Source: an uncultured Armatimonadia bacterium
Lineage (GTDB): Bacteria > Armatimonadota > Zipacnadia > CAVVLO01
DNA length: 64,000 nt
Direction: 5' to 3'
Assembly (NCBI GenBank): GCA_963749155.1
Contig: CAVVLO010000001.1
Location: 512,001-576,000, forward strand
Below, piece by piece: positions 15,152 through 37,221 of the stretch. Within the stretch, counting starts at the first letter, position 1. Each line of letters starts with the position of its first letter. Both the position numbers and the translations under genes were made by a program. Below the pieces are notes generated by a model. It searched no databases. It was not told the origin of the DNA and saw nothing but the letters and a program-made list of their open reading frames with translations.

Positions 15152-15568
15152 ATGCCAACTATTGGGCAGCTAGTTCGCAAGCCCAGGCGTACGCCGGCGA
15201 AGAAAATACGGAACAAGGCACTGTTGATTCGGTTCAACTCTTTGAAGAACCGGTCGGCGCTAACCGAGGGCGCACCGCAGAAGCGCGGAGTGTGCACGAA
15301 GGTGTGGGCAGACAAGCCCAAAAAGCCGAACTCGGCTTTGCGGAAGCTGGCCCGCGTGCGGCTGACGAACCGGGAAGAGGCAACCGCCTATATCCCCGGT
15401 ATCGGGCACAACCTGCAGGAGCACTCGGTAGTGCTTATCCGCGGCGGGCGCGTCAAGGACCTGAACTCGGTCAAATATCACATCGTGCGGGGCGTGCTGG
15501 ATGCGGCTGGGGTAAACAACCGCAAGCGCGGACGTTCGAAGTACGGCACCAAGAGACCCAAGGCATAA
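15152..15568 (+). CDS. rpsL: 30S ribosomal protein uS12
   Basis: [39 protein letters not shown]. Confidence 0.98.
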
Positions 15569-22726: not shown

Positions 22727-23368
22727 TTGGCTGAAGTAAAAGCAACAGGAAAGTTTCTCAGAGGGTCGGTTTTCAAGGTGCGGCCTGTGCTGAGCGCTAT
22801 AAAAGGGATGCCTGTACGCGAGGCTAAAGCAAGCCTGGCCTATATGGGCGGCAAAGGCGCGGAGTTGGCACTGAATGTGCTGACCTCGGCAAGCGCCAAC
22901 GCGGTGGAGAACGCCGGGGCCGAGGAGTCTGCTCTGGTGGTAAAGAACGCCTTTGCAGATGAAGGCGTCACCATCAAGCGTATGCGTTTTCGCGCATATG
23001 GCAGGGCTGACCGCATCGCAAAGCGCACTTGTCACATCACGATAGTGGTGGATGAGGACGAGGAGCGCAAGGCGAAGCTGGAAGAGAAGGCCAAAGCCAA
23101 GGCGAAGGCCGCGAAGGCGACTCCCGCAAAGGGCGAGAAGAAGGCGTCTGAAAAGGCGCCCGAGGCAGAAGCCCCTGTGAAGAAAGGCCGCAAGACGAAG
23201 GCTGAAGCGCCTGTAGCCGAAGAGCCGCAGGTCGAGGCCCAGGAGCCTGAAGAGATTGTAACCGACATCGAAGAAGTCGGCGCCGACATCGAAGAGGTCG
23301 AAGAGGCCCCCGAGATGGAGCAGGCGGAAGGCGACGAGTCGGAGAGCGACAAGCAGGAAGGAGCCTAA
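22727..23368 (+). CDS. rplV: 50S ribosomal protein uL22 with about 100-aa C-terminal extension
   Basis: [24 protein letters not shown]; operon position. Confidence 0.95.
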
Positions 23369-25118: not shown

Positions 25119-27203
25119 TTGAAGGTTTATGAAACCGACAAGCTACGCAACCTGATCGTTGCAGGCCACCGGGGCGCAGGCAAGACCTCGCTGGTGGAAG
25201 GTATGCTCTTCGCGACGGGCGGCAGTACCCGCCTTGGACGCGTTGAAGAGGGCACTTCTACCTGTGATTACAGCCCCGAGGAGATAGACAGGAAGATAAG
25301 CATCCAGTCGGCACTGGCTTATGTCGAGACCGACGGATGCAAGGTCAACCTGATTGACACCCCTGGGTTTGGTGAATTGCTGGGCGAGGTTATTTCTACA
25401 ATAGCCGCCGCGGATGCGCTGCTTCTTGTTTTGGACGCTACAGGCGGCGTCGAAGTGATGACCGAGCAGGTCTGGAACCTGGCCCAGGCCAAGTCGGCAC
25501 CCAGTGTTGCTTTCGTTAACAAGCTGGACAAAGAGAACACCGATTTCGACGCATCGCTTGCGCAGTTGAAAGAGGCTTTTCAGGGCGTCACTTTCGCGCC
25601 TGCGGTCATCCCGATGGGCACTGCGGCTGACTTCAAAGGGGTCGTAGACGTACTGAGCGGGAAGGCTTATACCTTCGCGGGTGGCAAGGAGACCGAGGGG
25701 CCAGTGCCTGCCGAATACGCTGACGCGATGGCGACGGCAAAGGAAGCCCTGACGGAAGCGGCGGCCGAAGGCGACGACGACTTGCTCGAGAAGTACCTGG
25801 AAGAGGGCGAGCTTACCGAAGCCGAACTGCTTAAGGGCCTGGGAGCCGCAGTCGCGGCTGGGAAGGTCTGTCTGGTGTTCGGCGGCAGCGCTTACAACAA
25901 CAGTGGCACGCTGGCTCTGTTGAAGGGCCTGGTTAAGTGGATCCCTTCGCCTGACAAACTGCCGGCCATAAAGGCCACGAAGGTAAATGGCGATACCGAG
26001 GTTGAGCTGGCGCCCTCTGGCAGTTCGCCACTTACGGCCCTGGTTTTCAAGACTATCGTAGACCCGGTCGTCGGACGTGTCAGTTATCTGCGCGTCTTCA
26101 CGGGCGAGCTTTCGAGCGATGTAGCCCTGTATAACGCAAGCAAGAGCGGGTCAGAGCGACTCAGCCAGATTCTGGTACTGAAAGGCAAGAACCAGGATAC
26201 GGTCGTAAAGGCAGTGGCTGGCGATATTGTCGCAACCACCAAGCTCGATGATACCGAGACGGCTGATACACTTTGCGCGCAGGACCACCAGATGACGCTG
26301 CCCCGGATGGAATATCCGGAGCCTTTCGCGAGTCTGGCAATCAACTGCGCGAATCGCGCTGATGAAGAGAAAGTCAGCGATACGCTGAACAAGTTGCAGA
26401 AGGAAGATCCTTCTTTCCGCGCATATCGCAATCATGAGACCGAAGAGTTGCTGGTAGCAGGCCTCGGGAGCTTGCACCTGGACGTCATAGTTGATAAACT
26501 CAGGCGTCGCTCCAAGGTCGAGGTCAACACGACACCGCCGAAGGTCGCTTACCGCGAAACCATCCGCAAACGGGTAGAGGTCGAGGGGAAGCACAAGAAA
26601 CAAACCGGCGGACGTGGCCAGTTCGGGCACGTGTGGGTTCGGTTCGAGCCGCTGCCGCGCGGTGGCGGGTTCGAGTTCGAGGATGCAGTCGTGGGAGGCT
26701 CCGTGCCTCGTCAGTTCATTCCCGCAGTGGAGAAGGGCCTCGCAGAGGTCCTGCCTAAAGGCGTGCTTGCGGGATTCCCGACAGTGGATGTAAAGGCGAC
26801 TTTGTACGATGGCTCGAGCCATGCGGTTGACTCTTCGGAGTTGGCTTTCAAGCTGGCCGCTCATCTGGCTTTCAGGAAGGGCATAATGGAAGCCGATCCA
26901 GTGCTGCTTGAACCGATCAGTTATGTCGAGGTCACGGTGCCCGAGGAGTTTATGGGCGATGTGATGGGCGACTTTAACGGACGGCGTGGCCGGATCCTGG
27001 GAATGGAACCACAAGGCAACAAGCAGATCGTGAAGGCCATGGTGCCGCTGTCCGAACTTGGGATGTACAGCGCGGACCTCACCAGCAAGACGGGTGGCAA
27101 GGGTCACTTCATGATGAGGTTTGATCATTACGACGAAGTGCCGGCCCACCTGGTCCAGCACATCATCGAGCAGCACAAGAAGGATCAGGAAGAAGCCGAA
27201 TAA
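25119..27203 (+). CDS. fusA2: Second elongation factor G (EF-G II/EF-G2-like)
   Basis: GHRGAGKT, RKISI, DTPGF, NKLD, KQTGGRGQFGHV, HAVDSSELAF; TTG start with AAGGAGG RBS. Confidence 0.93.
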   Translation: MKVYETDKLRNLIVAGHRGAGKTSLVEGMLFATGGSTRLGRVEEGTSTCDYSPEEIDRKISIQSALAYVETDGCKVNLIDTPGFGELLGEVISTIAAADALLLVLDATGGVEVMTEQVWNLAQAKSAPSVAFVNKLDKENTDFDASLAQLKEAFQGVTFAPAVIPMGTAADFKGVVDVLSGKAYTFAGGKETEGPVPAEYADAMATAKEALTEAAAEGDDDLLEKYLEEGELTEAELLKGLGAAVAAGKVCLVFGGSAYNNSGTLALLKGLVKWIPSPDKLPAIKATKVNGDTEVELAPSGSSPLTALVFKTIVDPVVGRVSYLRVFTGELSSDVALYNASKSGSERLSQILVLKGKNQDTVVKAVAGDIVATTKLDDTETADTLCAQDHQMTLPRMEYPEPFASLAINCANRADEEKVSDTLNKLQKEDPSFRAYRNHETEELLVAGLGSLHLDVIVDKLRRRSKVEVNTTPPKVAYRETIRKRVEVEGKHKKQTGGRGQFGHVWVRFEPLPRGGGFEFEDAVVGGSVPRQFIPAVEKGLAEVLPKGVLAGFPTVDVKATLYDGSSHAVDSSELAFKLAAHLAFRKGIMEADPVLLEPISYVEVTVPEEFMGDVMGDFNGRRGRILGMEPQGNKQIVKAMVPLSELGMYSADLTSKTGGKGHFMMRFDHYDEVPAHLVQHIIEQHKKDQEEAE

Positions 27204-29250: not shown

Positions 29251-29796
29251 ATGTCTCGTATAGGGCAAATGCCTATTGAGATACCAGGCGGTGTGCAAGT
29301 GACCATCGAGGGTCAGCATATCGCGGTAAAAGGGCCGAAAGGCCAGCTCGAGCGCGTAGTGCCCGAGCCGATCCAGGTCGTGCAGGAAGGTTCAGTGCTG
29401 ACGCTGGTGCGTCCGGACGATGAGCAGAACAGCAAGGCCCTGCACGGGCTGAGCCGGACCCTCGTTGCCAACCTGGTAGCAGGCGTGACGACTGGATTCC
29501 GCAAGTCGCTTGAACTGCACGGGAAGGAGTTCCGCGCTGAAGTGCGCGGTTCCAGCCTGGTGATGGATTTGGGATTCAGCCATGAGGTAGTTTACGAACC
29601 CGCAAGCAACTGCAGCTTCGAAGTGCAGGGGCAGAACCCAATACTGATCCACATAAACGGGATCGATCGGGAAGTCGTGGGCCAGACGGCAGCGACAATC
29701 CGGGCCAGAAAAAAGCCTGAGCCTTACAAGGGCAAAGGGCTGCGCTACCAGGGCGAAGTCGTCCGTCGCAAGGCGGGCAAGGCAGGCGCTCGGTAA
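29251..29796 (+). CDS. rplF: 50S ribosomal protein uL6
   Basis: MSRIG, VKGPKG, LGFSH, PEPYKGKG. Confidence 0.97.
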   Translation: MSRIGQMPIEIPGGVQVTIEGQHIAVKGPKGQLERVVPEPIQVVQEGSVLTLVRPDDEQNSKALHGLSRTLVANLVAGVTTGFRKSLELHGKEFRAEVRGSSLVMDLGFSHEVVYEPASNCSFEVQGQNPILIHINGIDREVVGQTAATIRARKKPEPYKGKGLRYQGEVVRRKAGKAGAR

Positions 29797-29828
29797 CAGG
29801 GGACAGAGTCGGTACAGGGGTGTGCCAG

Positions 29829-30197
29829 ATGGCAAGCATAAAGTCGCGAAATGAATTAAGGAAAATCCGTCAGGACCGCGGTCGGCGGAAGATCAAGGGA
29901 ACGGCCGAGCGGCCTCGGATTTGTGTATACAAGAGCCTGAAGGCGCTGTATGTACAGGTCATAGACGATGAAGCCGGGCACACGCTGATGGGGCTGACAA
30001 CTGGCGCAGGCGAGTTGAAGGACGGGCTGGAAAGCCTGACTAACCTGGCTGCCGCCGAGAAACTTGGCGAGGCAGTAGGGGCCAAACTCATCGAGCGCGG
30101 GATCACCGCAGTGGTGTTCGACCGCAGTGGCTACAAGTTCCATGGGGCCGTAAAGGCGATCGCCGATGCAGCGCGCAAAGCTGGCGTGCAGTTCTAA
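29829..30197 (+). CDS. rplR: 50S ribosomal protein uL18
   Basis: [24 protein letters not shown]. Confidence 0.97.
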
Positions 30198-30220
30198 TCG
30201 GCCAGAGCAGGAGGCAGACA

Positions 30221-30421
30221 ATGGCTGCTAAGGCAGGCAAACAAATAAAAGTCACGCTGGTACGCAGTGTCATTGGGCATACGAAATCCCAGAAAGACAC
30301 CGTACGCGCGCTTGGACTTGGAAAAATCAGTTCGAGTCGAGTGCTGCCGGACAGTCCGGCAGTGCGCGGGATGATCAACAAGGTACATCACCTTGTTGAG
30401 GTCTCGGAAGTCGGAAGCTAG
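30221..30421 (+). CDS. rpmD: 50S ribosomal protein uL30
   Basis: [27 protein letters not shown]. Confidence 0.96.
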
Positions 30422-30453
30422 CAAAGCTCCCAGGACCCGGAGGTGCTCCACAG

Positions 30454-30911
30454 GTGAAACTGCACGAGATAAAACCCGTAGAGGGAAGCATAAAGAAGAA
30501 GATGAGGGTCGGGCGCGGTCCCTCCAGCGGCAAGGGCAAGACGTCCGGTCGCGGTATGAAGGGTCAGCACGCCCACGGGCAGGTGCCGCAGGGATTTGAA
30601 GGCGGCCAGACTCCGATGTCGATGCGACTGCCGCTCAAGCGTGGCGTAAGCCGCGCGCAGCATAACCTGGGGATCTTCCGTAAGGACGTAGCTGTGGTTA
30701 ACATCAGCAAGCTGGCCCGGTTCGAGGCTGGCGCGACGGTTACACCCGAGGAACTCTACGCCCTGAATATGGCGCGTCGCACGAAAGACGGCGTCAAGAT
30801 ACTGGGGAACGGCGAACTTTCCATAGCGCTGAACGTGAAAGCGCAGGCGATCTCCAAGGTGGCCAAGGAGAAGATAGAGGCGGCGGGTGGCACCGTCGAG
30901 GTGATTAGCTG

Positions 30912-30912
<1 letters not shown>
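30454..30912 (+). CDS. rplO: 50S ribosomal protein uL15
   Basis: RVGRG, GKTSGRG, GFEGGQTP, KILGNG. Confidence 0.97.
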
Positions 30913-36597: not shown

Positions 36598-37221
36598 GTG
36601 AGACACAGGGTTAGAACAAATTCGCTTGGCAGGGCTGGGGATCAGCGGGACGCAATGCTGAAGCACCTGGTACGCGGTCTGATAGAGCATGGGAAGGTCG
36701 AGACCACAATACTGCGCGCCAAGCGCGCCCGGCCGATAGCCGAACGCCTTGTCACCTATGGCAAGAGAGCGCAGCTAGCGATGCAGGTCGCGGCGGCAAC
36801 CGAAGCCATGATGCAGTCAGCCAAGGAGAAGAGCGATGCCTCGGCGACCGCCAAACAGGCGGACGCGCTGGCCACTTTGCTCCAGGATGCGGTAGCGGGG
36901 ATGACCGAGGGCACTGCCAAGCGCAACCGGGCCGAGCAGGCCAGGGTATGGGCCGAGGAAGTTTCTGCCAAAGCGAAGGCCGGAGAGCTTGATGAGGCTA
37001 TCGCGCTGATTCGGTTGATTTGGGTCTACGGCAGCGGGACCAATGTTGCGCTGAGGCGGCAGGCTCGGAAGCTGCTTGGCGATGAGAAACTGATCAAGCA
37101 CCTTTTCGAAGAGATGGCGCCCGAGTATATGGATCGCAACGGCGGTTACACACGGATTACGCGCACTGGGCTGAGGCGTGGCGATTCAGCTCAAAAGGCC
37201 GTGCTGGAGTTCGTAGAGTAA
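36598..37221 (+). CDS. rplQ: 50S ribosomal protein bL17 with about 90-aa internal insertion
   Basis: MRHR..LGR, ETT, RNGGYTRI, RRGDSA; 207 aa. Confidence 0.95.
   Translation: MRHRVRTNSLGRAGDQRDAMLKHLVRGLIEHGKVETTILRAKRARPIAERLVTYGKRAQLAMQVAAATEAMMQSAKEKSDASATAKQADALATLLQDAVAGMTEGTAKRNRAEQARVWAEEVSAKAKAGELDEAIALIRLIWVYGSGTNVALRRQARKLLGDEKLIKHLFEEMAPEYMDRNGGYTRITRTGLRRGDSAQKAVLEFVE

Follow-up and report, generated by a model that had tools for sequence, protein, structure and literature searches.

In this Armatimonadota genome, the spc operon lacks rpsE, the gene for ribosomal protein uS5. The absence is real, and it reflects relocation rather than loss. Throughout the class an intact, single-copy rpsE lies away from spc, and this is probably the outcome of an ancestral duplication under a promoter of its own followed by deletion of the operon copy. 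The window, meaning the whole stretch of DNA that was analysed, is 64,000 nucleotides long. Few gene orders in bacteria are as stable as rplR-rpsE-rpmD. In the window, rpsE is not found between rplR and rpmD, and the junction reads as follows.

29251..29796, forward strand: rplF (uL6), upstream spc gene; ORF translation, single copy in the genome
29829..30197, forward strand: rplR (uL18), normally followed by rpsE; TIGR00060, 111.9 bits (cut-off 87.85)
30198..30220, forward strand: spacer of 23 nt in the usual rpsE slot, with no rpsE remnant; sequence and tblastn
30209..30214, forward strand: Shine-Dalgarno-like AGGAGG, 6 nt 5' of the rpmD start; read from the sequence
30221..30421, forward strand: rpmD (uL30), directly after rplR; TIGR01308, 88.5 bits (cut-off 44.65)
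30454..30912, forward strand: rplO (uL15), downstream spc gene; ORF translation, single copy

The rplR stop codon TAA occupies 30195-30197 and the rpmD start codon ATG begins at 30221. A preliminary description of this DNA had reported the missing gene and the short gap with its ribosome-binding site, and both the sequence and a contig from a separate sequencing run agree with it. It had also stated that no uS5 ORF is recognisable in the window. In accordance with this, tblastn with 68 uS5 proteins found no uS5 remnant in the window (best E 0.027), and the ten best rows all lie away from the rplR-rpmD junction. The remaining S10/spc/alpha genes are all among the window ORFs, named by translation, again as described before, and their order is kept. 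Three of them carry frameshifts in the assembly: rplB (22277), adk (32416), and rpsD (35326). A one-base difference that restores the frame is present for each of the three in contigs from two or three other runs. These frameshifts are likely to be assembly errors, because the contigs of the other runs keep the frame.

Such indel errors near the junction and an assembly contamination of 5.87% speak for the reading that rpsE was truly lost or dropped through assembly collapse. The 609-nt contig from run X2 covers 30099-30698 with 3 differences and crosses the rplR-rpmD junction without a gap; it is the sole junction-bridging piece among the 32 matches listed. Run X1 has zero cover over 29816-30366 and is thus neutral on this point. 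The same rpsE-less junction is seen in 60/60 spc loci of relatives, and a collapsed assembly is therefore excluded. An intact rpsE that groups with those of class relatives is present on another contig, C5, and true loss is refuted by it. Loss or collapse is thus extremely improbable.

C5:317561-318067 (locus L003:10062-10568), forward strand: rpsE (uS5), outside the window; TIGR01021 and both Pfam domains
C5:317487-317516, forward strand: predicted rpsE promoter; promoter scan

The C5 gene encodes 168 amino acids, starts with GTG, has no internal stops, and is single-copy. Both uS5 Pfam models (PF00333 and PF03719) match at full length and at one place in the genome, and TIGR01021 scores 199.1 bits against a cut-off of 164.05. 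Relocation, which the preliminary description had considered most likely, is thereby confirmed. The tetranucleotide profiles of C5 and C1, another contig of the assembly, correlate with r 0.995, and the neighbouring genes prs, rplY, and pth are each single-copy. C5 is assigned to this genome because of its composition, its single-copy neighbours, and the placement of its uS5 in the tree, which rule out a contaminant contig. Judging from its single copy and its conservation, the uS5 made from the relocated gene presumably becomes part of the 30S subunit and works there.

The gene order on C5 is prs, rplY, pth, and then rpsE, all on the same strand, with rpsE starting 57 nt past the pth stop codon. 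The predicted sigma-70 promoter of rpsE, TTGACA-18-TATAGT (11/12), overlaps the end of pth. The promoter scan at this locus called 4 promoter-like sites in 5 kb, two of them at 11/12, versus 1.7 expected. The earlier suggestion of a separately regulated uS5 is supported as far as this predicted promoter goes. In this genome, terminators were called neither in the pth-rpsE interval nor directly past rpsE, and rpsE may therefore also receive read-through from the prs promoter.

The prs-rplY-pth locus was considered as a conserved new home and rejected. No match to Pth, bL25, or Prs is found within 1.5 kb of uS5 in 28/28 relatives, nor within about 0.9 kb in 20/20 further loci. The setting is therefore particular to this lineage. 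One member each of a uS5 and a bL25 sequence cluster lists an 18,993-nt contig, a hint that a near relative has this link too. A search for close relatives with DNA found only distant uS5 loci (6 in genome contigs and 4 in metagenome contigs). The uS5 of this genome has no acidic C-terminal tail; most class uS5 proteins have acidic, Ala/Glu-rich C-terminal tails of up to more than 100 residues.

All relatives compared are of the same class and belong to families and orders other than those of this genome. The class sample comprises 79 genomes, 73 of which have a uS5 match; the other six are 76-93% complete. Among the first 30 relatives, 28 have a uS5 match, and in those 28 there is no uL6, uL18, uL30, uL15, SecY, or Pth within 1.5 kb of it. 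In 26 of the 30, rpmD is present and always immediately after rplR, with rpsE absent in 26/26. The other four, of genus g13, have rplR followed by rplO, again without rpsE (4/4 rplR loci). Both uS5 and uL18 matches were found in 41 of 48 further class genomes, and they are on different contigs in 41/41. At 30 further rplR loci, rpsE is absent from all 30, and the next gene is rpmD in 22 and rplO in 8. Thus the total of relatives' spc loci without rpsE is 60/60. No second copy of rpsE was found in any genome searched. The new neighbours of rpsE are common only to members of one family or to two genomes.

Outside the class, both genes are present in each of 110 other Armatimonadota genomes, drawn from 32 families, and rplR is just upstream of rpsE in 109, as compared by eye from match coordinates (largest gap between matches 841 nt). 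The remaining genome, G139, keeps rpsE-rpmD-rplO-secY and has rplR near the end of another contig. This is a different break from the class relocation.

The spot vacated by rpsE shows a further change in part of family f7. Its genera g13, g167, and g168 have rplR followed by rplO with no uL30 match there, and rpmD was not found anywhere in the four g13 genomes searched (4/4). The absence of rpmD in part of f7 is likely to be a second loss from the same spot.

The relocation interrupts a very stable gene order; such a break is rare, and this one is likely to be ancient. An older survey of S10/spc/alpha gene order (Coenye and Vandamme 2005) may bear on novelty. No published report of rpsE outside spc, or in Armatimonadota, was found in a search whose coverage of subscription journals is incomplete. 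The available part of Brandis 2021 (PMC8046335) lists 163 cluster changes in 204 genomes, and the genes leaving the cluster there are rplJL, rpsN, rpmJ, secY, map, and rpsD. There is no rpsE among the 163 events of its Table S6, which is confined to Gammaproteobacteria and Bacilli. The relocation is a variant of this known escape of single genes from the ribosomal cluster. As in the single-gene deletions of that study, as far as its available text describes them, an essential gene leaves, the operon and its neighbours stay intact and close up, and a copy is present elsewhere, here as the uS5 match in 73/79 class genomes. There are differences too. The rpsN and rpmJ cases of Brandis 2021 (PMC8046335, available part) involve old paralogue pairs, whereas no second copy of class rpsE was found; in contrast to those events, the rpsE move has become fixed throughout a class, and no new neighbour of the gene is constant. 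In the preliminary description, a normal relocated copy would reduce the case to a simple rearrangement; the move is more than a one-genome event and marks the whole class. New here are a predicted self-contained rpsE cassette, an enriched leader hairpin, and a failed test of compensation for uS12.

The 29 class uS5 sequences fall on one side of a branch (support 99/93), with this genome deepest under a midpoint root. As class uS5 forms one clade, one old event is the simplest reading. In the proposed sequence of events, one class ancestor would have duplicated rpsE under a separate promoter, and the operon copy would then have been deleted, with rplR and rpmD closing up. Duplication followed by deletion is the route given for rplJL and secY in the available text of Brandis 2021 (PMC8046335). 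For the duplication step, no two-copy genome was found among those searched.

A rival reading is a transfer: the class ancestor would have taken up a foreign rpsE and then lost the operon copy, a xenologous replacement of the kind shown for rpsN in the available part of Brandis 2021 (PMC8046335). When 16 non-Armatimonadota rows were added to a quick tree of 12 class rows and 18 other rows of the phylum, the class remained one group (SH-aLRT 91) and stood beside Chloroflexota-labelled and unnamed, Chloroflexota-like sequences (90, unstarred). In addition, class uS5 has no His at E. coli position 25, which is present in 28/35 other Armatimonadota. However, most outside rows in that tree had been picked by their likeness to this protein, and the other Armatimonadota do not form one clade in it either. 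Forcing all Armatimonadota together was not rejected (p-AU 0.136), and a vertical origin and an old transfer are not separated by this test. In the deep-branching uS5 of this genome, the loop also still ends in "LRW", as it does in families f28, f30, f33, and f14, which argues against a foreign source. Transfer is thus unlikely, and duplication with deletion is preferred.

At its new places, each rpsE copy is predicted to be a self-contained unit with a sigma-70 promoter, a short leader, and often a terminator. A promoter score of at least 9 was obtained upstream of rpsE in 25/29 loci of the first set and in 19/20 held-out loci (44/49). The 20 held-out loci represent 7 families, of which three are new, and the twentieth locus is cut by a contig end. 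In 26/29 first-set loci, at most 1/30 shuffled sequences matched the promoter score. A terminator-like hairpin within 110 nt past the rpsE stop codon is seen at 25/49 loci, versus 0/49 coding controls; this genome is not among the 25. Such a unit would explain why different neighbours are tolerated in each family. The stand-alone gene would yield working uS5 at a housekeeping level, uncoupled from its former operon neighbours.

Many rpsE leaders begin with a GC-rich hairpin. Under a strict definition (at least 7 bp, at least 6 of them G-C, start within 12 nt of the predicted transcript start), it is present in 18/28 first-set leaders, G012 being left out as no promoter was found there, and in 12/19 held-out leaders (30/47). 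It is present in 0/37 other promoters and in 3/19 leaders of rpsO, rpsT, rpsB, and rpmE from five genomes. The other promoters come from 40 plus-strand controls from four genomes, out of 152 matches, after 3 tRNA-flagged ones were dropped. Over the first 36 nt, the folding energy has a median of -15.5 and -15.1 kcal/mol in the two rpsE sets and -5.9 and -10.4 kcal/mol in the two control sets. The counts are inflated by related genomes, and as kin are not independent, the hairpin p-values are overstated. The strict hairpin failed in families f1, f4, f6, f9, and f12, and in this genome. The stem letters vary between families while pairing is held, and downstream of the stem come a U-rich stretch and then the Shine-Dalgarno site; the anchored table of stem pairs was selected for pairing and is hence circular. 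There is no invariant column in two leader alignments, in which MAFFT left the stems unaligned and gave no usable covariation test. Rfam returned 4 weak matches for 16 rpsE loci, all below the gathering score.

Hairpins at the 5' end have a known role in stabilising mRNA. The hairpin seen in most relatives most likely acts in this way, by shape alone, as a 5' stabiliser. Feedback by uS5 is a live alternative. Free uS5 would bind the hairpin of its own leader and block translation, replacing the coupling of the operon. The enrichment of the strict hairpin over both controls and the pairing kept between families point in this direction, and so does the leader of this genome, whose predicted pairing covers both the Shine-Dalgarno site and the start codon (-19.1 kcal/mol, z -3.0, 2/200 shuffles as good). 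The first five uS5 residues, whose codons take part in this pairing, are identical in two relatives of 81-82% identity, and the next five mostly differ. There is also a precedent in the stand-alone rplY of E. coli, described as autoregulated in the available part of PMC10931766. Against feedback, only 8/29 leaders fold with z <= -2 over 60 nt, and the short common hairpin leaves the Shine-Dalgarno site uncovered. The five families without the strict hairpin, the lack of an invariant column and of a gathering-level Rfam match, the circular stem table, and the kinship behind the p-values also count against it. Feedback control of the stand-alone rpsE is thus rather unlikely. The same grade applies to a broader proposal, in which rpsE would be a mobile, self-controlling cassette whose uS5 binds its own 5' hairpin, the first uS5-responsive leader, in a class that also carries uS12 and 16S changes.

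The resemblance to stand-alone genes with autoregulatory ribosomal leaders (for example rplY in E. coli; Eckert and Weinberg 2020, PMC7247131, available part) lies in a predicted own promoter, a short structured leader, and a single gene. In contrast to those leaders, the rpsE leader has no conserved sequence and no Rfam match at the gathering score. The word rpsE is absent from the available main text of PMC7247131 and of PMC10931766.

The preliminary description had further proposed that a divergent uS5 could offset an unusual uS12 in the same genome.

15443..15478, forward strand: uS12 loop Asn-Ser-Val-Lys, corresponding to Pro91-Gly92-Val-Arg94 of E. coli (Met = 1); sequence comparison

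In favour of this offset, in which the relocated and divergent uS5 would have evolved to balance a hyper-accurate uS12, both traits map to one class. The exact uS12 Lys94 pattern is found in 28/29 class genomes and in 1/232 others, and misses may also stem from other changes within the pattern. At E. coli positions 91-92, the 24 class sequences read Asn-Ser in 18, Asn-Thr in 2, and Pro-Ala in 4, that is, an Asn- or Thr-type loop in 20/24, and all have Lys94. Among uS12 matches with NCBI names, three are labelled Armatimonadota, two with the loop of this genome. In the laboratory, uS12 P90 and G91 mutants are streptomycin-dependent or streptomycin-resistant, according to the available part of PMC3884664. 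In uS5, the near-invariant G28 is Ala in this genome, its cluster, and two relatives of 81-82% identity only; G28 to Asp in E. coli causes miscoding, cold sensitivity, and spectinomycin resistance (PMC2440530, available part).

However, a single shared branch is a single event and gives no correlation, and the two traits are separable. The loop is Pro-Gly in G005 and Pro-Ala in genus g13 and G262, yet their rpsE is relocated, and G093 reads Pro-Ala-Val-Lys with rpsE still in spc. Pro-Ser-Val-Lys occurs in 18/120 uS12 phmmer matches, two of them labelled Chloroflexota, and three Chloroflexota-labelled or similar matches read Pro-Ser. The uS5-uS4 interface gives no support either. The uS5 residues G104 and R112 (E. 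coli, Met = 1), which we take to be the classic ram sites at this interface, are unchanged in 29 class rows, and uS4 has 0 class-specific changes at conserved sites in 19 class rows (the split gene of this genome excluded). The class changes in uS5 instead gather around loop 2, for which PMC13361928 (available part) gives context. Asp19 is present in 28/29 rows, with Arg34, and the two may form a cross-strand pair. The combination of Asp19 and Arg34 also occurs in 13 phmmer matches outside this lineage, whereas G28A is confined to the lineage of this genome. Besides, relocation of a gene by itself leaves fidelity unchanged. The offset is very unlikely. The uS5 relocation and the uS12 change share a branch, and a required pairing of the two is not supported.

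Two further ideas were tried and rejected. Loss of RimO as the cause of the uS12 loop change is contradicted by RimO above the cut-off in 5/5 genomes. Compensation through the decoding site of 16S rRNA is contradicted by the 1409-1491 A-U pair, which is also common outside the class. No class-specific 16S position in h18, h27, or the A site is among the positions listed.

Several observations on the small subunit are added here. The 16S changes A59G, C330U, G351U, and C352U (E. coli numbering) are found in 20/20 class sequences, the rows including contig C2 of this genome, versus 0/11 other Armatimonadota, and the 962-973 pair is flipped in most class sequences. These class changes may reflect a tertiary contact that co-varies in the shoulder of the small subunit, and they may be a signature of the class. 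RsmG, the 16S m7G527 methylase, has no match above the cut-off in class genomes G014 and G024 and is present in G000, G008, and G093. At uS5 R29, Asp or Gln is found in families f5, f9, and f12. In G011 and G015, uS4 is of a different, cysteine-free type and is encoded away from the spc cluster, on other contigs.

That ribosomal proteins are made in equal amounts is usually explained by operon coupling. A class that has long run rpsE alone offers a natural test of the need for this coupling and of what takes its place. In addition, the rpsE-less junction cleanly marks the class, and marker sets based on contigs will overlook uS5 in class genomes. If the leader does bind uS5, it would be a new control element of ribosomal protein and RNA; without such binding, the relocation would be a tidy but modest evolutionary trait.

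Compared with the canonical ribosomal cluster, all other genes of the cluster are in the usual order in this window, whereas rpsE is gone and a second EF-G gene (25119-27203) lies between rpsQ and rplN, a feature shared with several other Armatimonadota. The second EF-G gene is at this position in 4/4 class clusters and 4/6 other Armatimonadota clusters read; in the other two, it is between rplE and rpsN. bL17 (36598-37221) is interrupted by a long internal insertion rich in Ala, and uL22 (22727-23368) ends in a long Lys/Glu-rich tail.
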